64,000 bases of DNA from Dehalococcoidia bacterium (GTDB lineage: Bacteria; Chloroflexota; Dehalococcoidia; Lucifugimonadales; UBA1127), in the NCBI GenBank assembly GCA_034422455.1, contig DAOUJQ010000013.1:98110-162109 (forward strand), written 5' to 3'. Made by a program: the position numbers and the translations under genes. Under the pieces are notes generated by a model. It made no database searches. It saw only the letters and a program-made list of their open reading frames with translations, and was not told the DNA's origin. Below, piece by piece: positions 1-63,236 of the stretch; position 1 is the stretch's first letter, and every line of letters begins with the position of its first letter.

Positions 1-2
1 GC

Positions 3-1412
3 ATGCTGGACGACGCCCGAGAGGGCCGCTTCGACGTCATCGTCTGCTGGAAGTCCGACCGCCTGAGTCGGGGCATGTTCCCCGCCGCGGCCCTCATGGA
101 GGTAGTGGAGGCCTACCAGCTGCGCATCGAGTCGGTGATGGACGCCGTCGACATGAAGACGTTTGGGCTCATGGCCGCCATCGGGAAGATCGAGTTGGAC
201 AACTTCCGGGAGCGGGCCGCCATGGGGAAGCGGGGCGCCGCCAAGCGGGGGCGCATCGCCACCGGCCGCCCGCCCTACGGCTACCGGGTGGGCCCCGACG
301 GCAGGCCCACCGTCGACGAGAACGAGGCGGAGGTCGTCCGCCGCATCTTCCACGACTACGTGGAGCGGGGCCTCGGCATCGTGCGCATCGCTTGGGACCT
401 GACGGATGAGGGGGTGCCCACCGCCACCGGGGGGCGCACCTGGCACGAGTCGGTCGTGCACAACCTTCTGGGCAACCCCGTCTACACGGGCACCTGGGCC
501 TACGGGCGGACCCGCAACATCACCACCGACGAGGGGAAGCGGGTCTTCGCCCAACCGGCCGACACCTGGATCGGGGTGCCGGTGCCGCCCATCGTGGACG
601 AGGAGACCTTTGCGCAGGCCCAGGCGACCAAGCGGGCGCGACTCAGCCGGGCCAAGCGCAACACCAAGGTCCTCTACCTCCTTCAGCACCTGCTGCGATG
701 CGCCGAGTGCGGGCGCACGTTTCAGGCCCACTCCCGCTGGCACGCCAACTCAACCCGTCGTGGCCGTCGGGTCTCCTACGACCTGAAGGCTCCCCTCCGC
801 TACTACGCCTGCACGGGGAGCAAGCTGCGGCTCCGCTGCCGGGAGAAGCCCAGCATCAAGGCGGAGCGGCTGGAGGGTCGGGTCTGGGAGGAGGTGAAAG
901 CAGTCCTCCAAGAACCCGGCGTCATCATCGCGGGCATGGAGGCCGTGGGGCAGGGCAACCATGCGTCCCTGGCGGAGGAGCAGGCGAAGGCGGAGCGGGA
1001 CCTACGAGCAGTGCAGCGGGAGGAGGAACGGCTCGTCCGCCTCTATGTCGCCGGGAAGATCACCGAGGAGATGCTGGACCTCCAGCGCAAATTCATCACC
1101 GAGTGCCTGGAGCACCTGAGGGCCAAGGTGGACGACTACCGGGCCCGCGCCGCGACGGAGGTCACCCGCGAGCAGATGGTCGACAGCGTGCAGGCGTGGA
1201 CGGCGCGAGTGGGCGCCGGGCTGGACGCGCTGACCGAGGAGGAGAAGCGCGACGTCCTCCAAGACGTGGTGGACGAGATCACGGTGGACGGGCAGAATAA
1301 CCTCGTCATCACCGTCGCCATCCCCATCGACGGAGAAGAACAAATTATCTCACCGGTAAGCCGGTATCCAGAAACCCCGCGCCCAACGGCCTCCACATAC
1401 CCGGACCCATAA
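3..1412 (+). CDS. large serine recombinase (N-terminus cut by window edge)
   Basis: Resolvase-type catalytic-domain remnant (FDVIVCWKSDRLSRG), recombinase domain (PPYGYRVG, VVRRIFHDY), Cys-rich zinc-ribbon region (CAECGRTF..YYAC) and a long coiled-coil tail. The last ~20 codons (PVSRYPETPRPTA) are read out of an R3 intergenic repeat. Confidence 0.85.
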   Translation: MLDDAREGRFDVIVCWKSDRLSRGMFPAAALMEVVEAYQLRIESVMDAVDMKTFGLMAAIGKIELDNFRERAAMGKRGAAKRGRIATGRPPYGYRVGPDGRPTVDENEAEVVRRIFHDYVERGLGIVRIAWDLTDEGVPTATGGRTWHESVVHNLLGNPVYTGTWAYGRTRNITTDEGKRVFAQPADTWIGVPVPPIVDEETFAQAQATKRARLSRAKRNTKVLYLLQHLLRCAECGRTFQAHSRWHANSTRRGRRVSYDLKAPLRYYACTGSKLRLRCREKPSIKAERLEGRVWEEVKAVLQEPGVIIAGMEAVGQGNHASLAEEQAKAERDLRAVQREEERLVRLYVAGKITEEMLDLQRKFITECLEHLRAKVDDYRARAATEVTREQMVDSVQAWTARVGAGLDALTEEEKRDVLQDVVDEITVDGQNNLVITVAIPIDGEEQIISPVSRYPETPRPTASTYPDP

Positions 1413-12130: not shown

Positions 12131-12769
12131 ATGGCCAAGCTCTCTTGTGACGTGTTCTTCGATTACACCTGACCCTTTGTGTACAACGCAGCCGTGTGGC
12201 TGGAGTCCGCAAAGGAGACCGCGGGAGACGAGCTGGAGCTGAACTGGCGAGGTTTCCTGCTGGAACAGATCAACAGCAAGGAAGGCCCTGACTGGAAGGT
12301 CTGGGAGCAGCCTGACGACTATGAGTTTCGCGGAATGTGGGCCCTCCGGGCCGGCGAGGCCGCCAAGGCGCAGGGGCCGGAGCTCTTCCAGCAGTTCCAC
12401 ATGGCGCTGCTCCGGGCACGCCACGTGGACCGCGTCAACGTCGGCGACCGGGAAGTGCTCATGGAGATCGCCGCAGGCGTAGGCCTCGACCTGGAGCAAT
12501 TCCGCGCCGACATGGAGGACCAGGCGACCAAGGACAAGGTCGCCGCTGACCACGTCGAGGCCGTCGAGAGCTACGGCGTGTTCGGCACGCCCACGTTCGT
12601 CTTCCCCAACGGCGCCGCGGCGTTCGTCAAGCTCCTCAAGCCGCCGGAGGCCCGCGCGTCACGCGCCCTGGAGCTGCTCTCCGAGATGATGGAGGACCAC
12701 ATCTACATCGGTGAGGTCAAGCGGCCCCAGCCGCCGTGGCCCAAGGGCGCATTCACCGCCGGGAGCTAG
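12131..12769 (+). CDS. DsbA/FrnE-like thioredoxin-fold oxidoreductase with in-frame TGA (12170-12172) at the active-site Cys position; candidate selenoprotein
   Basis: GGGAGG (12119-12124) lies 6 nt before ATG 12131. The reading is MAKLSCDVFFDYT-TGA-PFVYNAAVWLE, in frame with track ORF 12179..12769. The cis-Pro loop GVFGTPTFVF is present. A hairpin follows the TGA. Confidence 0.6.
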
Positions 12770-23156: not shown

Positions 23157-23623
23157 GCTCTGGCTACGACGTCCACCGCCTCGTCGAGGGTCGTCCCCTG
23201 GTGGTCGGCGGCGTCACCATCCCCCACGACAGGGGCCTCCTCGGCCACAGCGACGGCGACGCCCTCCTCCACGCCGTCATCGATGCGCTGCTCGGGGCCG
23301 CCGGCCTCGGCGACATCGGCGGCCAGTTCCCTTCCAGCGACCCGGCCTACAGGGACGCGGACAGCCGCGAGCTGCTGCGGCGGGTGGCGTCGCTCGTAGC
23401 TGCGTCAGGTTGGAGATTGGTCAACCTGGATGCTACAATCATCGCCGAAAGGCCCGTCATGAAGCCCTACATCGGGCCCATGCAGGACTGCATTGCGGCG
23501 TGCCTGTCCGTCGAGACCGCGCAAGTCAACGTCAAGGCCAAGACCAACGACGGCCTCGGGGCGCTCGGCGGCGGCGAGGGAATCGCCGTCCACGCCGTGG
23601 CCCTGCTCGAGGAAACCCCATGA
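23147..23623 (+). CDS. ispF: 2-C-methyl-D-erythritol 2,4-cyclodiphosphate synthase, apparent ATC start
   Basis: (I)RIGSGYDVHRL..GHSDGDALLHAVIDALLGAAGLGDIG aligns with the canonical MRIGxGxDVH from residue 1. GGAGGT (23135-23140) lies 6 nt before ATC 23147. There is no ATG/GTG/TTG in frame for >200 nt upstream. Confidence 0.8.
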   Translation: MRIGSGYDVHRLVEGRPLVVGGVTIPHDRGLLGHSDGDALLHAVIDALLGAAGLGDIGGQFPSSDPAYRDADSRELLRRVASLVAASGWRLVNLDATIIAERPVMKPYIGPMQDCIAACLSVETAQVNVKAKTNDGLGALGGGEGIAVHAVALLEETP

Positions 23624-24990
23624 AGCTCTACGACTCCCTGACCGGCGAAAAGAAGGACTTTGTGCCCCTGGGCGATACCGTCAAGATGTACGTCTGCGGC
23701 ATCACCCCCTACTCCTCGTCCCACGTCGGCCACGCCATGTGCGCCGTCTACTTCGACACGCTGCGCCGGTACCTCGAGTACTCCGGCCACCAGGTCACGC
23801 ACGTCCAGAACTTCACGGACATCGACGACAAGATCATCGACGCCGCCGCAAAGCAGAAGACGTCGCCGGTCACGCTGGTTGAGGAGATGGTCGAGGAGTA
23901 CCTCATTGACATGGCCACCCTCAACGTCCAGCCCGCGCACATCTACCCGCGCGTCACCGACGAGGTCCCGCGCATCATTGAGATGATCGAGGGCCTCATC
24001 GACAAGGGCTTCGCGTACGAGTCGGAGGGCGACGTCTACTACCGCGTCACCAGCTTCCCCGGCTACGGCAAGCTCAGCCACCGCACGCTCGACGGCATGA
24101 TGGCCGGCGCGCGCATCGAGCCGGGCCTCGGCAAGGACCACGCCATGGACTTCACCCTCTGGAAGCGCGCCAAGGCCGGCGAGCCGTCCTGGTCCAGCCC
24201 CTGGGGCGAGGGCCGCCCCGGCTGGCACATCGAGTGCAGCGCCATGGCCCTCCACTATCTCGGCCCCAACCTGGACATCCACGGCGGCGGGCAGGACCTG
24301 GTCTTCCCCCACCACGAGAACGAGATCGCCCAGACCGAGGCGTTCACCGGCCGGGAGCCCTTCTCCCGGCACTGGGTGCACAACGGCCTGCTGCAGCTCG
24401 ACCAGGACAAGATGAGCAAGTCGCTCGGCAACTTGGTCACCGTCCGGGAGGCCCTGGACAAGTTCGGCTCGGACGCGCTGCGGCTCTTCTTCCTGAACTC
24501 CCACTACCACAGCCCGCTGGCCTACTCTGAGGAAAGCCTGGTCGGGCAGCAGCGCGCCGCCGACCGCCTGCGCACGGCCCTCGGCGTCGCGGGCAGCGGC
24601 GGCGCGGCAGAGGCCGTCGACCCGGAGCCGCACCGCGAGCGCTTCCGCGCCGCCATGGACGACGACCTGAACACGCCCCAGGCCCTCGCGGCCGTCTTCT
24701 CGCTCACCCGCGACATCAACCGCGGCAACGAGGAGGGCAAGGGCATCGCCGCCGCGCAGGAGTGCCTGCGGGAGCTCACGGAGGTCCTCGGCCTGCGGCT
24801 GCTGCCGGACGTGGGTTCCGGCGACCAGCCCGCCCGCCCCTTCGTCGAGCTGCTGGCCGAGGTGCGGCAGGAGCTGCGAGCGTCGAAGCAGTTTGCTCTT
24901 GCCGACCGCATTCGCGACCGCCTCCAGGAGATGGGCGTGACCCTGGAGGACACGGCGGACGGCACAAACTGGCGCTTCACCGGCAACTGA
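23620..24990 (+). CDS. cysS: cysteine--tRNA ligase
   Basis: YVCGITPYSSSHVGHA (HIGH), KMSKSLGN (KMSKS), CWHIEC-like GWHIECSAM. ATGA overlap with ispF. Confidence 0.95.
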   Translation: MKLYDSLTGEKKDFVPLGDTVKMYVCGITPYSSSHVGHAMCAVYFDTLRRYLEYSGHQVTHVQNFTDIDDKIIDAAAKQKTSPVTLVEEMVEEYLIDMATLNVQPAHIYPRVTDEVPRIIEMIEGLIDKGFAYESEGDVYYRVTSFPGYGKLSHRTLDGMMAGARIEPGLGKDHAMDFTLWKRAKAGEPSWSSPWGEGRPGWHIECSAMALHYLGPNLDIHGGGQDLVFPHHENEIAQTEAFTGREPFSRHWVHNGLLQLDQDKMSKSLGNLVTVREALDKFGSDALRLFFLNSHYHSPLAYSEESLVGQQRAADRLRTALGVAGSGGAAEAVDPEPHRERFRAAMDDDLNTPQALAAVFSLTRDINRGNEEGKGIAAAQECLRELTEVLGLRLLPDVGSGDQPARPFVELLAEVRQELRASKQFALADRIRDRLQEMGVTLEDTADGTNWRFTGN

Positions 24991-36155: not shown

Positions 36156-36815
36156 CTAGGCCGTCGCCTTCTCGAGGAGCGCCTGCGGGTTCGTCTCGAG
36201 GATGGCCTTGAACTCGCCCTTGGAGAGTCCTGAGCCGATGACGATCTGCCGCGCCAGCTCCTCCGTCAGCAGGTCGCCCGGCCCGTGCGCGTCCGAGTCC
36301 ACGACCAGGTTGGCGCCGACGGACATGGCCGTGCGGGCGACGTGGCCGTTCGTCAGGCTGTGTCCGGCCCGCGCCGACAGCTCCAGGTAGATGCCCGCCT
36401 GTCGCGCGATGTCGGCCTCCTCCTCGGTGATCATCCCCGGGTGCACCAGGATGTCGACGTCCGTGCTCTCCAGCGCGGCGCGGTTCGTGCCCCCCGCCAC
36501 CGGCTCCTTGATCGTCTCGCCGTGCACCAGCACCAGCCTGGCCCCGTTCGCCTTGGCGCGCCGCGCCGCCTCCGCGATCCGGTGCGGCGGCACGTGTGTC
36601 AGCTCGACGCCCGGCACGACGGTGATGCCCATGTTCTCCGTCGCCTCCGCGCACTCCTTCACCAGGATGTCCAGCACCCGCTCCTGGTCGTTGATGCCCG
36701 CGTGGTCCGTCACGGCCATCGCGGTGTAGCCGTTCGTGACCGCCCGCCGGATGAGCTCGATCGGCGAGAGCACGCCGTCGCTCAGGAACGTGTGTGAGTG
36801 AAAGTCGAAGAGCAT
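36156..36815 (-). CDS. PHP-domain metal-dependent phosphoesterase
   Basis: MLFDFHSHTFLSDG, VTDHAG, ..DSDAHGPGDL. Confidence 0.8.
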   Translation of the reverse strand: MLFDFHSHTFLSDGVLSPIELIRRAVTNGYTAMAVTDHAGINDQERVLDILVKECAEATENMGITVVPGVELTHVPPHRIAEAARRAKANGARLVLVHGETIKEPVAGGTNRAALESTDVDILVHPGMITEEEADIARQAGIYLELSARAGHSLTNGHVARTAMSVGANLVVDSDAHGPGDLLTEELARQIVIGSGLSKGEFKAILETNPQALLEKATA

Positions 36816-36922
36816 GTGACCTCCCGGTATGGCGCTCAGATACGGCCTGCGCTTCTATGATAGTGCATGCCCGGCTATTTTGTGGAGTATACTGGCGGCA
36901 TCTCGCCCTCCGGAGGTGCGCC

Positions 36923-37759
36923 GTGACCGAGTCATCCGCCGGATACGCCAGGCCTGAGCTCCTCGCCGAACCCGGCTGGCTGGAGGAACACCTGGACGAC
37001 CCCAACGTGCGCGTCATCGACTGCGCCAACTTTGACCTCTACCAGAAGGCGCACATCCGCGGGGCCGTTGGCCTGCGGGTCAACCCCTTCATCAAGGACG
37101 CCAACGACTCCGTGCACGTCATGCCGCCAGACCAGTTCGCCGCGCTCATGGGCGGCCTGGGCGTCGGGCCGGACACCACCGTCGTCTCCTACGACACCGC
37201 CGGCGGCGTGCCCGCATCGCGCATGTGGTGGGTGCTCAACTACTACGGCCACACCAACGCCAGGGTGCTCAACGGCGGCTGGGAGCGCTGGTTCCACGAG
37301 GGCCGCCCTATCTCCCGCGACGTCCCGTCGCCTTCGCCCGCCGCCTTCACGCCTGTGACCAACGACTCGCTGGTGTGCTCCCTCGATTATGGTAAGGAGC
37401 ACGTCGGCAACGGGAACGTGCTCTTCCTGGACGTGCGCACGGACGGCGAATGGACCGGCGAGAACTCACGGGGCAACAAGCGCATCGGCCACGTGCCCGG
37501 CGCCGTCCACCTTGAGTGGACCAACTTCATGAACCCGGAGCCGGACCGCTCGTGGAAGTCGGCGGAGGAGCTCCGCGCCATCCTGGCGGAGGCGGGGGTC
37601 ACGCCCGACAAGGAAGTGATCACCTACTGACAGGGCGGCATCCGTGCGGCGCACGGACTGCTGACCCTCCGGCTGCTGGGCTACGACAACGTCCGCAACT
37701 ACGACGGCTCCATGAGCGAGTGGGCCAACCGCGACGACACCGCCCTGACGACGGAGTAA
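36923..37759 (+). CDS. two-domain rhodanese (thiosulfate/3-mercaptopyruvate sulfurtransferase-like) with in-frame TGA (37628-37630) at the catalytic Cys position; candidate selenoprotein
   Basis: GGAGGTG before GTG 36923. The reading continues EVITY-TGA-QGGIRAAHGLLTLRLLGYDNVRNYDGSMSEWA..TTE-TAA(37757). The active-site loop CxxGxR has TGA in place of Cys. A hairpin lies at 37638-37661. Confidence 0.65.
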
Positions 37760-38025
37760 CCCCCACCCGTTCGTCCCCTTTGCGTCGTTCCCGCGAAGGC
37801 GGGAACCCAGAGGGGCAGGGTGGCGCGGGGAATCCTTGTTCGCCTTGCACAGCGCCCGTTCGCCCTGAGCCTGTCGAAGGGCCCCTCGAACGGACATCCG
37901 CCTCCATCTCGTCGTTCCTGCGCAGGCAGAGCCTGCCCCTGCGAAGGCAGGGGAACCCAGAGGGGCCGGGTGGCGCGGGCCAACTCCGTTCGCCCTGAGC
38001 TTGTCGAAGGGGGCGAACGGCCACG
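37760..38025 (+). repeat. repeat cluster IV (short R2, R1, long R2, R1)
   Basis: GTCGTTCCCGCGAAGGCGGGAACCCAGAGGGGC; CCCGTTCGCCCTGAGCCTGTCGAAGGG..CGAACGG; long R2 at 37908; R1 at 37984. Confidence 0.9.
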
Positions 38026-43658: not shown

Positions 43659-45425
43659 CTACGCCGCGCACTCGCCCTCGCCGCGCTCCACCTTGTACAG
43701 CACGTCGCGGTTCCAGTCGATGTAGTAGTGGATCGTGTCGCGGCCCAGCTCCGGCACCGTGGACACGGGCCGCAGCATCTCCTCGTACGCCGCCGGGCCG
43801 ACGCGGTCCACGTAGTCGTTGAAGATCTCGCCGTCGGTGCGGTTCGCCACGTAGTCGTCGACGATGACCTTGACCGCCTCCTCGATGCGCTTGGACGGCA
43901 CCTTCATGCGCAGGTGGTGGCCGATGCGCACCGGCTTGATCTGGCTCCCGCCGACGTACACCTCGTACGCCGGCACCTGCGCGTTGCCGCTCTTGATCGC
44001 CGCGCCGTGGAAGCCGATGTTGCCCAGGTGGTGCTGTCCGCAGCCGTCCGGGCAGCCGGAGATGTTGATGCGGATGTTGCGGGCAAGCTCGTCGTCCGCC
44101 TTGTACTCGCTGAGGGCGTCCCACAGGTTGCCGGCGAGCCCCTGCGACGACGTGATGCCCAGCGAGCAGCTCTCCGTGCCGGGGCAGGAGACCACGTCGC
44201 TCAGCTCGTTGGCGCCGGGCTCCGCCATGCCCACGGCCGCCAGCTTCTCGTACAGCGCGTGCAGCGCGTTGTTGGGCACCCACTGCAGCGTCATGTCCTG
44301 CCGCAGCGTCATGCGGATGCTGCCCGCCAGCTCGCGGGAGATGTCCGCCAGCTGGAAGAACTGCTCGTCGGAGACGTTGCCCAGGCGCAGCTTGATGAAG
44401 ACGGCGCTGTAGCCGTCCTGCTTCTGGGTGATCACGTTGCTGCCCAGCCACCGCTCGAAGGCGGGGTCGTCCGGCGGGAAAGGCGGGTAGTCCTTCGCGG
44501 GAGGCGGGATGACGGGCTCGTACTCTCCGGCCGAGAGCTCGTCCAGGTCGTAGGTGACGTCGGCGAGCTCCTTCTCCATCACCTCCTCGACCATCTCGCG
44601 GAAGGCGTCGATGCCGATGCGGTTGATCAGCACCTTCACGCGGGCCTTCATCTTGTTCTTGCGGAGCTCGTCGGCCGCGTTGAACACCCGCAGGCATGCC
44701 TCCGAGACCTTCAGGAAGTCCTCGACGGGCACGAAGTCGTACAGCTCCTGCGCGATGAGCGGCTGAATGCTGGTCCCGCCGCCCACCACGATGCGGAAGC
44801 CCTTGCGCTCCACGCCGTCCACCTCGCGGATGACCGCGTGGAAGCCGATGTCGTGGATGGCCGTCATGACCCAGTCGTGGGTGCAGCCCGAGAAGGCCGT
44901 CTTCCACTTGCGGGGCATGTTGTTGGTGAAGTCGCGCCGCACGAAGTTGCGGACGTACGCGACGGCGTACGGCGACGGGTCGAAGACCTCCTCCGGGCAG
45001 ACGCCGGTCAGCGGGCAGCTCGTCACGTTGCGCACGGTGTTGCCGCACGCCTCGCGGCTGCCGAGTCCCGTCGTGCCGAGGGTGCGCATGACCTCCGCGG
45101 CGTCGTCCAGGTTGAGGAAGTGGTACTGCACGTTCTCGCGGGTGGTGATGTGCCCGCGCTTCAGCGGGGTATAGTCGCGCGCTATGCGGCCGAGCGACTC
45201 GAGCTGGTCGGGCGTCATTCGGCCCAGGGGCACCTTGACGCGCATCATCTGGTTGTCGGGCTGCCGCTGGCCGTAGACGCCCTGGCGCAGCCGGAACGCG
45301 CGGAACTCCGCCGCGTCCAGGTCGCCCGTGCGGAAGCGCTTGGCCTCGTTGTCGAAGTGGTCGATCTCCTCGGGAAGCACGGGGATGATGACGTTGGGCC
45401 TCCATCGGCTGTCCGTTGTGGTCAT
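43659..45425 (-). CDS. ferredoxin-dependent sulfite/nitrite reductase (siroheme-[4Fe-4S] family)
   Basis: Two NIR_SIR repeats. Cluster-binding Cys motifs ACGNTVRNVTSCP and SGCPDGCGQHHLGNIGFHG. Confidence 0.85.
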   Translation of the reverse strand: MTTTDSRWRPNVIIPVLPEEIDHFDNEAKRFRTGDLDAAEFRAFRLRQGVYGQRQPDNQMMRVKVPLGRMTPDQLESLGRIARDYTPLKRGHITTRENVQYHFLNLDDAAEVMRTLGTTGLGSREACGNTVRNVTSCPLTGVCPEEVFDPSPYAVAYVRNFVRRDFTNNMPRKWKTAFSGCTHDWVMTAIHDIGFHAVIREVDGVERKGFRIVVGGGTSIQPLIAQELYDFVPVEDFLKVSEACLRVFNAADELRKNKMKARVKVLINRIGIDAFREMVEEVMEKELADVTYDLDELSAGEYEPVIPPPAKDYPPFPPDDPAFERWLGSNVITQKQDGYSAVFIKLRLGNVSDEQFFQLADISRELAGSIRMTLRQDMTLQWVPNNALHALYEKLAAVGMAEPGANELSDVVSCPGTESCSLGITSSQGLAGNLWDALSEYKADDELARNIRINISGCPDGCGQHHLGNIGFHGAAIKSGNAQVPAYEVYVGGSQIKPVRIGHHLRMKVPSKRIEEAVKVIVDDYVANRTDGEIFNDYVDRVGPAAYEEMLRPVSTVPELGRDTIHYYIDWNRDVLYKVERGEGECAA

Positions 45426-61251: not shown

Positions 61252-61283
61252 TTCTTGCCTCACTTCTGTTGCTTGGAAGCTTG

Positions 61284-61312
61284 AGTATAGGTGGATTTCG
61301 CAGGGGGGTCAA
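61284..61312 (-). promoter_or_regulatory. putative rpsU promoter (TTGACC-N17-TATACT)
   Basis: Minus-strand TTGACC (61312-61307), 17-nt spacer, TATACT (61289-61284). Confidence 0.55.
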
Positions 61313-61322
61313 GGAACGCGCC

Positions 61323-61351
61323 TTGGCAGCCGTAGGGGCGTCCCCTATAGT
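61323..61351 (+). promoter_or_regulatory. putative promoter of the rumA-maf gene (TTGGCA-N17-TATAGT), near-leaderless
   Basis: TTGGCA 61323-61328, 17-nt spacer, TATAGT 61346-61351. ATG 61362 is only 10 nt downstream and has no SD. Confidence 0.5.
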
Positions 61352-61361
61352 TAGTCCTGCT

Positions 61362-63236
61362 ATGGCGGAGGCAACGCAACACGCCGCGACGGGGGCGCTC
61401 GCGCCCGGCGACCGCATCGAGCTCACCCTGCTGGAGCTTACCCCGACGGGCGAGTGCACGGCCACGCTCGACGGCGGGCCCGTCACCGTCTTCGGCGGCA
61501 TCCCCGGCGAGCGCGTCGTGGCCGAGGTGGTCCGGCGCCGCCGCGACGCCGTCGCCGCCCGCGTGGTCGAGGTGCTGGAGCCATCGCCGCACCGGGTGGC
61601 GTCCGACTGCGAGTATTTCTGGCCCTGCACCGGCTGCCAGTGGCGGCACGTCTCGTACGAGCGCCAGCTCGAAATCAAGCGGGAGCGCGTCGAGGCGACT
61701 CTGCGGGCCGAGCCGGGGCTCGCCGGCGTCGTTGTCCAGCCCACCATGCCCAGCCGCTCGACGTCCGGCTACCGGAACCACGCGCGCTTCACCATCGGGC
61801 CCGGCGGCACGCTGGGCTACGTCAACCACACGACCCGGCGCTTCCTGCGTGTGGACCGCTGCGACCTGATGCACCCGTGGATCAACGACGCCCTGAGCCA
61901 ACTGCAGGAGCGCTGCGCCGAGACCACGCAGCTCTCCGTCCGCTACGGCGTCAACACCGGCGACTACCTCGTGCAGCCGCGGCTCGTTGGGCACGGCATT
62001 GAGCTGGAGAGCGGGCAGAAGCACTACACGGAGGCGATGCTGGGCCGGGAGTTCCGCGTAGCATCGCCTTCATTCTTCCAGGTCAACACGCCGACGGCGG
62101 AGGCCATGGTGGAGCTGGTCGGCGACCAACTGCATCTCCGGCCCACCGACCTGCTCGTGGACGCCTACGCCGGCGTGGGGGTGTTCGCCCGCCTGCTGGC
62201 CGATCGCTGCCGCCGGGTCATCGCCATCGAGGAGTCGTCCGCGGCGGTCAAGGACGCCCGCGTCAACGCCGAGGACTCGCCCACCGTCGAGTTCCGCCTC
62301 GGCAAGACGGAAGACGTGCTGCCGGCGCTCGATGAGACGCCCGACGCCCTCATCCTGGACCCGCCCCGCGCCGGCTGCGACCGCCGGGCCCTGGACGCCG
62401 TCGTGCGCTTTGGCCCCCGCCGGATCGCGTACGTCTCCTGCGAGCCGGAAGCCCTTGCGCGCGACCTTGCGGTTCTGGTGGAAGGCGGCTACTACGTCGA
62501 CCTCGTCCAGCCCGTCGACCTCTTCCCGCATACCCACCACATCGAGGCCATAGCGGTGCTGTCACGAGCCGCCAACGAGAATACCCCGTCGCTTACCCTG
62601 GCGTCGGCGTCGCCCCGCCGACGCGAGCTGCTGCAGCTCCTCGGGCTCGACTACGACGTTGCGGTCTCCGGCGTGGACGAGACGCCGGCGGAGAGCGAAG
62701 ACACGCCGGAGGGGATCGCGCAGTCGCTGGCGCTCCGCAAGGCGCGGGCCGTCGCCGCCGGGCGGTCGTCCGGCCTCGTGCTCGGCGCCGACACCGTCGG
62801 CGCACTGGACGGGGTCATCTACGGCAAGCCCAGCGACGCCGCGGAGGCCGAGGCGACGCTCCGTGCGCTGCGAGGGCGAACGCACACCGTCGTCACCGGC
62901 GTCGCGCTCGTGGACGCCGCCACGGGCGAGGCGGCCGCCGCCTACGACGCCACGCGGGTCACCATGCGCGACTTCACGGACGCCGAGATGGCCTCCTACA
63001 TCGCCTCCGGCAACCCCATGGACAAGGCGGGCGCCTACGCGGCGCAGGACGCGGCCTTCCACCCCGCGGCCGCCATCGACGGGTGCTGGACCAACGTCAT
63101 CGGCCTGCCGCTTTGCCGCGTACGGACACTCCTCGCCCAGCACGGCGTCGATACCCCGGAAGGCGCTGAGTGGGGACCCCTCGGCGAGTGCGCGGGCTGC
63201 GCCTCCATCCCCGAGAAGGGTTGGCCGCTGCCATGA
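61362..63236 (+). CDS. fusion protein: TRAM/RumA-type RNA (uracil-5-)-methyltransferase plus Maf nucleoside-triphosphate pyrophosphatase
   Basis: N-part: TRAM, Cys cluster CEYFWPCTGCQW, FFQVN, ILDPPRAGC, YVSCEP, LFPHTHHIEAIAVL. Short linker AANENTPS. C-part: LTLASASPRRRELL, GADTVGALDG..GKP, MDKAGAYAAQD. No stop and no canonical internal start lies between the domains. Confidence 0.85.
   Translation: MAEATQHAATGALAPGDRIELTLLELTPTGECTATLDGGPVTVFGGIPGERVVAEVVRRRRDAVAARVVEVLEPSPHRVASDCEYFWPCTGCQWRHVSYERQLEIKRERVEATLRAEPGLAGVVVQPTMPSRSTSGYRNHARFTIGPGGTLGYVNHTTRRFLRVDRCDLMHPWINDALSQLQERCAETTQLSVRYGVNTGDYLVQPRLVGHGIELESGQKHYTEAMLGREFRVASPSFFQVNTPTAEAMVELVGDQLHLRPTDLLVDAYAGVGVFARLLADRCRRVIAIEESSAAVKDARVNAEDSPTVEFRLGKTEDVLPALDETPDALILDPPRAGCDRRALDAVVRFGPRRIAYVSCEPEALARDLAVLVEGGYYVDLVQPVDLFPHTHHIEAIAVLSRAANENTPSLTLASASPRRRELLQLLGLDYDVAVSGVDETPAESEDTPEGIAQSLALRKARAVAAGRSSGLVLGADTVGALDGVIYGKPSDAAEAEATLRALRGRTHTVVTGVALVDAATGEAAAAYDATRVTMRDFTDAEMASYIASGNPMDKAGAYAAQDAAFHPAAAIDGCWTNVIGLPLCRVRTLLAQHGVDTPEGAEWGPLGECAGCASIPEKGWPLP

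Follow-up and report, generated by a model that had tools for sequence, protein, structure and literature searches.

Among the 15 new prokaryotic selenoprotein families reported from the Sargasso Sea was COG2897, 'Rhodanese-related sulfurtransferase', which was represented by three sequences (Zhang, Fomenko & Gladyshev 2005, Genome Biol 6:R37, PMC1088965). These selenocysteine (Sec)-containing sequences, given in the 2005 supplement as AACY01016424, AACY01314374 and AACY01110644 (PMC1088965), include the stretches ..IVTYuQGGIRAAHVMFVL..VYDGSMGEWANRDDTPLIK, ..IATYuQGGIRAAHVF.. and ..IYTYuQAGVRAAHANF.., where u marks Sec. The published Sargasso DNA runs TGA CAG GGT GGT ATA CGT GCG GCG CAC GTT.., and the three sequences have in common the pattern TGA CAG G.T GG..T. 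CGT GCG GCG CA[CT] G.. (PMC1088965). A later review still lists 'Rhodanase-related sulfurtransferase, COG2897 (SseA)' as predicted (PMC9312934), and we found no literature report of experimental selenium incorporation for the COG2897 Sec rhodanese, which is listed among predicted selenoproteins.

Sec is also found in or beside the active-site loop of other proteins with the rhodanese fold, namely the single-domain COG0607 forms 1 and 2, the LYCAU-motif proteins (NF041203) and TsoB (NF045694), but these differ from the COG2897 form in being single-domain or fusion proteins (TsoB combines rhodanese and DsbD) and in their motifs, which are UxxS, CxU and UxxxxU. Among the Cys enzymes, those of Thermus thermophilus (PDB 1uar) and Azotobacter vinelandii (RhdA, PDB 1e0c) pair an inactive N-terminal domain with a catalytic C-terminal domain, and in both the catalytic residue is followed by a six-residue loop.

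The DNA considered here, a stretch of 64,000 nucleotides to which we refer as the window, comes from a Dehalococcoidia assembly, and the closest relatives of the source sequence are Dehalococcoidia MAGs. In ENA it matches positions 84,982-148,981 of NGUY21-1_SAMN17524325_METAG-scaffold_386 (ERZ23495174; 154,721 bp). We propose, with a probability of about 0.9, that one of its genes encodes a cytoplasmic two-domain rhodanese-type sulfurtransferase (COG2897/SseA) in which the catalytic C-terminal Cys is replaced by a UGA-encoded Sec. Judged by its sequence the gene belongs to the COG2897 Sec rhodanese family predicted in 2005 and is no new kind. With AACY01110644 the protein shares 50% identity across 159 aa (BLASTP, E = 1e-58), and it resembles the 2005 set in domain family, in the Sec column with its motif TY-U-QGGIRAAH, in the C-terminal YDGSMGEWANRDDTPL and in the SECIS core CGUGCGGCGCAYG. 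The UxxG arrangement of that family ('form 4'), with Sec at TY-U-Q[GA]G[IV]RAAH and a C-terminal YDGSMGEWAN, is thus found here together with the shared SECIS, and the window DNA, TGA CAG GGC GGC ATC CGT GCG GCG CAC GGA, can be compared codon by codon with the Sargasso sequences. There are differences as well: the host is a high-GC (67%) Dehalococcoidia MAG whereas the 2005 family came from low-GC surface-ocean bacteria, the gene is a full-length two-domain one rather than a fragment, and the outer stem pair of the hairpin is C-G where the Sargasso sequences have A-U or G-C.

The preliminary description of this DNA, made from its letters alone, had held that one reading frame passes through a TGA to a TAA, that reading through restores the rhodanese loop and the C-terminal Y-x-G-S-x-x-E-W, that the TGA stands in place of the persulfide-forming Cys, and that in the absence of readthrough the protein would lose its catalytic residue and the end of the domain; each of these points is borne out by the translation and the alignments. 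A single frame leads from GTG 36923 through TGA 37628-37630 to TAA 37757-37759, about 278-279 codons in all, and translates as ..DKEVITY*QGGIRAAHGLLTLRLLGYDNVRNYDGSMSEWANRDDTALTTE*. The UGA is codon 236 of this frame, so that termination there yields 235 aa, whereas its decoding as Sec would add the 42 codons that follow and give a product of 278 aa. The ORF 36794..37630 is merely the longest mechanical ORF; the true start is GTG 36923, which agrees with the N-termini MTQSS.. of the orthologues (P0001-P0008) and is likewise the start in the public gene call for the source contig. The features are collected in Table 1.

Table 1. Coordinates in the window of the rhodanese gene, its domains and its hairpin
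Feature	Position	Strand	Basis
Shine-Dalgarno-like GGAGG	36912..36916	+	6 nt 5' of the GTG start; read off the sequence
Predicted Sec-containing tandem rhodanese CDS, complete	36923..37759	+	translation; Pfam; PDB matches
N-terminal inactive rhodanese domain (predicted), approximate limits	36950..37290	+	internal-duplication alignment; 1uar/1e0c alignment
C-terminal catalytic rhodanese domain, residues 155-269, UGA inside	37385..37729	+	best Pfam stretch
UGA at the catalytic Cys column, predicted Sec codon	37628..37630	+	alignments; loop U-Q-G-G-I-R-A
Putative SECIS core: 7-bp upper stem UCCGUGC/GCACGGA, triloop GGC	37641..37657	+	fold; frozen codons; covariation
Extended hairpin, this genome	37632..37668	+	MFE fold; lower stem less conserved between lineages

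When the protein was searched with Cys written in place of the TGA, the Pfam profile PF00581 (Rhodanese) matched in two stretches with E = 3e-39, the better of them extending over profile positions 3-101 of 102, and full-length alignments were obtained with 1uar (E = 9e-53) and 1e0c (E = 1e-42). In these alignments the TGA falls on the catalytic Cys of both enzymes (YC-RIAERS in 1uar, HC-QTHHRS in 1e0c), and the length of the six-residue loop and the positions of its Gly and Arg are retained in U-Q-G-G-I-R-A. The catalytic residue is Cys in the two known enzymes and UGA (Sec) here, and since the loop that follows reads QGGIRA rather than RIAERS (1uar) or QTHHRS (RhdA), donor and acceptor specificity may differ from theirs. 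In the N-terminal domain the position of the active-site Cys is occupied by Asp92 (..VVSYD-TAGGVPAS..), and an internal-duplication alignment (second HSP) sets VVSYDTAGGVPASRMWWVL against IVTYCQGGIRAAHVMFVL; this domain is predicted to be catalytically inactive, as expected for the tandem rhodanese architecture. The protein thus has what defines the tandem rhodaneses (PF00581 x2; COG2897 SseA/TST), two domains in one chain of which the N-terminal one lacks a catalytic Cys, except that the catalytic column holds UGA and no Cys codon, and only decoding of the UGA as Sec, which is chemically analogous to Cys, would give that column its catalytic residue. Among NCBIfam models the best match was the 3-mercaptopyruvate sulfurtransferase equivalog, at 128 bits against a cut-off of 250; the scores against NF041203 (32.5 bits, cut-off 115) and TsoB (17.6 bits, cut-off 805) were lower still.

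The rhodanese gene is a solitary one, with a PHP-family gene running divergently beside it, and its neighbourhood points to no pathway. Gene order around it is kept only within a close clade (loci L001-L008), which we read as vertical inheritance and not as a functional operon, and a promoter and terminator scan gave nothing useful on the + strand.

A protein search that covered a collection of 5.8 billion sequences returned as the closest proteins P0001-P0008 (73-86% identity), every one of which is exactly 235 aa long and ends in ..[IV]TY; full-length homologues occur only at 63% identity or less, and read TYCQGGIRAAH. At the level of DNA, the preliminary description had posed the question of whether orthologues carry Cys or TGA at this column, and both were found. 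In a genome set with one genome per GTDB species, from which the best 80 loci were taken, TGA stands at the column in 23, and in a metagenome scan of marine and other loci, which was seeded with a published marine family member, 74 of 80 loci had TGA and the other 6 had TGC; where TGA is absent the codon is TGY, and a Cys codon (TGC or TGT) is found at the same column in 52 homologous loci altogether. The hosts of the 23 TGA loci are MAGs of Dehalococcoidia, other Chloroflexota, Binatia and Thermodesulfobacteriota, and all 23 loci run on in frame through QGGIRAAHG...YDGSM.EWANRDDT to a conserved end position. Selenoprotein genes are recognized by an in-frame UGA at a column where homologues have Cys, flanked on either side by conserved sequence, and the rhodanese gene shows this pattern.

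The Sec/Cys column was masked for a rough neighbour-joining tree of 150 C-terminal domains. All 98 Sec forms fell into one clade of 108 sequences, within which ten Cys forms are nested, and parsimony on this rough tree suggests about four switches between Sec and Cys.

The rhodanese TGA is also singular within the window. A six-frame scan of the 64 kb found coding signal on both sides of a TGA at this gene only, and a further GC3-based readthrough scan of the window and 19 related loci flagged only the rhodanese gene, apart from one locus (L011) in which the flag appears to reflect two neighbouring genes that share a frame. Downstream of the TGA no overlapping ORF with coding signal was found on either strand.

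Bacterial SECIS elements are described as stem-loops that directly follow the UGA and whose small apical loop contains guanosine (PMC1088965). A hairpin of this description lies right after the rhodanese UGA. The preliminary description had placed a stem GCA-TCCGTGC / GCACGGA-(C)-TGC at 37638-37661, with a G-rich, SECIS-like apex some 18 nt from the UGA, and had raised the possibility that the hairpin accompanies TGA only; the stem is where it was said to be, the apex proves to be the triloop GGC at 37648-37650, and, as detailed below, the core motif is confined to Sec forms. All the elements that it described are therefore present, far beyond chance. The two strands of the upper stem occupy 37641-37647 and 37651-37657, so that the core begins 10 nt past the UGA and the apical loop lies 18 nt past its A. 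The extended hairpin folds with a minimum free energy of -28.5 kcal/mol (z = -2.85 against dinucleotide shuffles), and only 1 of 200 shuffles folded as well; the sequence of its lower stem differs among loci. Rfam gave no SECIS or other credible match, either for the whole window at gathering thresholds or for 37560-37760 at E <= 10.

The putative element resembles the fdhF-type SECIS of E. coli in its site within the coding sequence directly 3' of the UGA, in an upper stem-loop that starts about 10-11 nt past the UGA, and in a small apical loop whose first positions are occupied by G. An 11-nt spacing between UGA and stem-loop is the rule for bacterial SECIS of the fdhF type. It differs from the fdhF element in having a GGC triloop rather than a GGUC tetraloop, and in an upper stem without a bulged U.

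The constraint on this RNA is most apparent in the codons that encode it. Codons +4 to +8 are ATC CGT GCG GCG CAC in all 24 genome Sec forms, and this freeze holds despite protein identities down to about 50% and differing genome G+C; the 17-nt core is identical in MAGs of Chloroflexota, Binatia and Thermodesulfobacteriota. In the 13 nearest Cys forms, by comparison, Ile, Arg and Ala at these positions are encoded by three to five different codons, and in the Sec forms themselves the equally invariant upstream residues Gly -11, Pro -8 and Tyr -1 are written with two or three synonymous codons. The pairing accounts for the choices made: Arg is CGU because this codon pairs with the A of the His codon, and the residue after His, which is Gly in Sec forms and Ala or Thr in Cys forms, is Gly because it supplies the GG that pairs with CC (CAC-GGN stem strand). 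Of 101 Sec forms 72 carry the core motif CGU[GU]CGGCG[CA]A[CU]G, as against none of 52 Cys forms.

When the 62 distinct core-motif sequences are compared, 96.3% of the cells of the 7-bp stem are paired, and controls in which the register of the stem was shifted fell to 15-71%. Compensatory changes are seen at pair 15-29 (CG 52, AU 6, GC 1) and at pair 19-25 (GC 61, UA 1), and the stem covariation score of 0.080, against 0.025 for shuffled alignments, was reached by none of 500 shuffles; since the stem core is near-invariant this covariation depends on a small number of pairs, which come moreover from related sequences.

Of the Sec forms that do not carry this core, 28 make up a marine subclade (RAANS[LV]FVM) with another hairpin, GGCGAACA-GUN-UGUUCGUC, 7 nt further downstream, and one has yet another hairpin. 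In the marine subclade the Ile codon is AUC, AUU or AUA and the Arg codon CGA, AGA or CGG, which is the free variation expected if RNA structure is what causes the freezing elsewhere. Every Sec form thus has a stable hairpin, and neither motif is found in any Cys form; the two main types, which account for 100 of the 101 Sec forms, have in common a triloop with G first, the loop starting 18 or 26 nt past the UGA. The SECIS appears to have turned over within the rhodanese family, the marine subclade having evidently swapped its hairpin for a different one.

Our searches for the Sec machinery covered the window, its flanks and the fetched loci, that is, portions of genomes rather than whole ones. 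ARAGORN detected no tRNA-Sec in the window and 24 loci (the loci of 23 Sec-form genomes and L081), Pfam identified no SelA, SelB or SelD among the ten largest ORFs of the window, no sel genes were present in the 10 kb of source scaffold past each window end, and tblastn with E. coli SelD and SelA, queries that were validated against PDB 3u0o and 8uzw, gave no match in 1.82 Mb of fetched loci (164 loci); selB was sought solely through Pfam labels on large window ORFs and through public gene calls. Within the class Dehalococcoidia, the cultured Dehalogenimonas alkenigignens possesses selC, genes for Sec synthesis, a Sec-specific elongation factor and selenoproteins (PMC4918011), and BSepDB counts two MAGs of the class, one with 49 selenoproteins and one with 46, among the richest bacterial selenoproteomes (PMC13326102). 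The window itself contains a second Sec candidate, a DsbA-like gene (Pfam DSBA) that reads MAKLSCDVFFDYT-TGA-PFVY, with the TGA at the Sec column of published DsbA-like selenoproteins (..DYIuPWCY.., ..DFTuPFCY..); the GC3 readthrough scan misses it because its TGA is just 13 codons from the start. This candidate and the precedents in the class lend indirect support to the use of Sec in the source organism.

Several other readings of the UGA have to be weighed. Public gene callers give a 235-aa product, as would be expected if the gene were genuinely truncated or a pseudogene, its catalytic end lost and the remaining fragment inert or serving another role. However, the stop at this column is TGA in 98 of 98 homologous loci and never TAA or TAG, the 42 downstream codons remain in frame to a conserved end in lineages down to about 50% identity, and GC3 is 0.95 past the TGA (0.93 before it). 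Over codons +10 to +38, dN/dS (Nei-Gojobori, window versus 16 Sec-form genomes) lies at 0.06-0.45, just as low as in the 28 codons that precede the TGA; synonymous sites were saturated in the comparison with four more distant Sec-form genomes. The 42 codons between the TGA and the TAA are thus under purifying selection and the gene is not genuinely truncated; that reading, to which we give next to no credence, is effectively refuted by the comparisons. An error of sequencing or assembly deserves equally little: TGC and TGT are one base from TGA and errors in MAGs do occur, as in the frameshifted P0009, but more than 100 assemblies, independent of one another and drawn from several phyla and sequencing projects, show the same TGA, long-read complete chromosomes among them, and assembly error is therefore excluded. 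Nor can UGA have been reassigned throughout the lineage to a standard amino acid, given that TGA terminates many well-supported genes of the window, such as that for Cys-tRNA ligase (23410..24990), and the coding signal stops there, so that UGA is otherwise an ordinary stop in this genome. On these sequence comparisons error and reassignment are both refuted.

The alternative that calls for more thought, though we judge it very unlikely, is leaky termination independent of Sec, in which a near-cognate tRNA for Cys or Trp would read the UGA-C, the hairpin slowing the ribosome, and the enzyme made would have Cys or Trp at this position. In bacteria, UGA-C is a leaky stop context. C does follow the UGA in all 62 distinct core-motif sequences, and the Sec machinery was not found in the window, flanks or fetched loci, both of which would fit this explanation. 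However, the C is there because the conserved Gln codon CAR forces it, and the hairpin has the hallmarks of a bacterial SECIS, with a small G-first apical loop about 20 nt from the UGA (PMC1088965). The hairpin is, moreover, frozen in sequence and not in stability alone, which points to a sequence-specific binder. Alternation of TGA and Cys at a catalytic residue is the standard signature of a selenoprotein, and were Cys the intended product TGY would be the simpler solution, the one that sister lineages in fact use. The comparative evidence for recoding of the rhodanese UGA as Sec is, in our view, strong.

If Sec is indeed encoded, the UGA would be recoded co-translationally, the hairpin 10 nt past it acting as a bacterial SECIS that recruits SelB-GTP-Sec-tRNA(Sec) to the ribosome as it reaches the UGA. 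Insertion of Sec would be followed by translation of the remaining codons to the TAA, giving the full-length enzyme with its loop U-Q-G-G-I-R-A. By analogy with the Cys rhodaneses, the selenolate might then accept the sulfane sulfur of a donor, for example thiosulfate, to form an enzyme-bound Se-S(-) intermediate, and this sulfur could be handed to a thiophilic acceptor; Sec, with its lower pKa and greater nucleophilicity, would plausibly quicken both half-reactions. When selenium or the Sec machinery is lacking, just the inactive 235-aa fragment would be made. The sequences themselves show the anatomy of the gene, the Sec/Cys column, selection on the codons past the TGA, the constraint on the hairpin RNA and the place of the gene in the 2005 family. 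The recoding steps, Sec insertion and its dependence on SelB included, we infer from what is known of Sec decoding in bacteria, and for substrates and Se-S chemistry the Cys rhodaneses serve as the model.

A role for the Sec enzyme beyond that of a faster sulfurtransferase may also be imagined, namely selenium trafficking, in which selenium or sulfur carried as a selenenyl-sulfide or perselenide would be delivered to selenophosphate synthetase, or selenite would be detoxified. As a separate possibility, the identity of the 17-nt core between phyla could mark a gene that moves among them as a self-contained Sec cassette. On the sequence patterns at hand we regard these ideas as unlikely.

Sulfur transfer by a Sec-containing rhodanese is the reading that we prefer, and we regard it as almost certain that the gene encodes a selenoprotein which public gene callers cut short. 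Its close relatives in public collections are called as 235-aa 'thiosulfate/3-mercaptopyruvate sulfurtransferase' that lack the catalytic residue; one cluster of such calls at 90% identity numbers 110 members, and complete chromosomes of Dehalococcoidia belong to the clade as well. Complete chromosomes with the TGA form are OZ244559.1, OZ220679.1, OX638292.1 and OZ252245.1. Models for the LYCAU-type and TsoB Sec rhodaneses exist in NCBIfam but none for the COG2897 Sec form, and the public calls are truncated as a result, so that metabolic reconstructions of these widespread Chloroflexota, Binatia and marine lineages will contain a broken enzyme.

The general knowledge of selenoproteins is unchanged by these findings, which will not surprise specialists; their value lies in annotation and in illustrating SECIS constraint and turnover within one family. 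A family once known from ocean fragments is now extended to full-length genes and to high-GC Dehalococcoidia, and it offers a clean case of a SECIS that constrains synonymous sites and one amino acid, the Gly after His.

The DsbA-like thioredoxin-fold gene of the window is a second candidate selenoprotein gene. Its frame opens with ATG and meets an in-frame TGA 13 codons on, reading MAKLSCDVFFDYT-U-PFVYNAAVWL. The TGA stands where the CPxC motif has its first Cys, but Val takes the place of the resolving Cys. Compared with the published DsbA-like selenoproteins predicted from the Sargasso Sea metagenome, the Sec column coincides with the TGA column of the window gene. The Pfam assignment of this gene was made on the 196-aa public call, and the hairpin 3' of the TGA is weak (z = -1.3).

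Coordinates of features in the window and at the related loci
Feature	Position	Strand	Remarks
DsbA-like thioredoxin-fold gene	12131..12769		in-frame TGA 12170-12172; Pfam DSBA/Thioredoxin_5
Sulfite/nitrite reductase (NIR_SIR) gene	43659..45425	-	6 kb downstream of rhodanese
Dispersed intergenic repeat	37772-38011 and 17 sites window-wide		core CTGAGCCTGTCGAAGGGC; sites e.g. 2529, 2678, 37865, 50548
Mobile or defence island	window 3..1412 and L162 1-9875
Single open frame, tRNA (uracil-5-)-methyltransferase and Maf nucleotide pyrophosphatase domains	61269..63236
Marine-subclade hairpin region	about 20-40 nt after TGA		metagenome loci L123-L160

The NIR_SIR gene could be linked to the sulfite that a thiosulfate sulfurtransferase releases. 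It is kept in the rhodanese neighbourhood of six loci of the close clade (L001, L002, L004, L005, L006 and L008) at 91-94% identity; against such a link, it lies on the opposite strand from the rhodanese, with unrelated genes between the two. Directly after the rhodanese stop codon come two composite repeat units, each of about 130-150 nt. Across the whole window, with up to 3 mismatches allowed, the repeat core occurs in 17 copies versus 0.13 expected, 16 of them on the + strand, and these repeats look like REP or MITE-type elements.

Locus L162 comprises the 8.5 kb of the scaffold before the window together with window positions 1..1412, and it holds a mobile or defence island that encodes a large serine recombinase, an AbiEi/AbiEii toxin-antitoxin, a ThsB-like TIR protein and an N6/N4 DNA methyltransferase. 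Near the other end of the window, the two-domain open frame measures 655 aa, whereas the public call gives 624 aa; it represents either an unusual fusion or two separate genes that share a frame.

Two database entries were irregular. P0009 (282 aa) is the same rhodanese, in which an assembly frameshift carries the reading past the TGA in another frame. The homologous locus L016 is probably from a mis-binned or mislabelled MAG, because it is labelled 'uncultured Enterobacteriaceae bacterium' yet its Sec rhodanese is Binatia-like.

The hairpin 3' of the Sec codon appears to have turned over among the Sec rhodaneses. In a marine subclade marked by ..RAANS[LV]FVM.., the CGUGCGGCGCACG hairpin is gone and synonymous sites vary freely at the former stem position; a different hairpin, GGCGAACA-GUN-UGUUCGUC, is found shifted 7 nt downstream. 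The marine subclade appears to represent a SECIS replacement inside one protein family.
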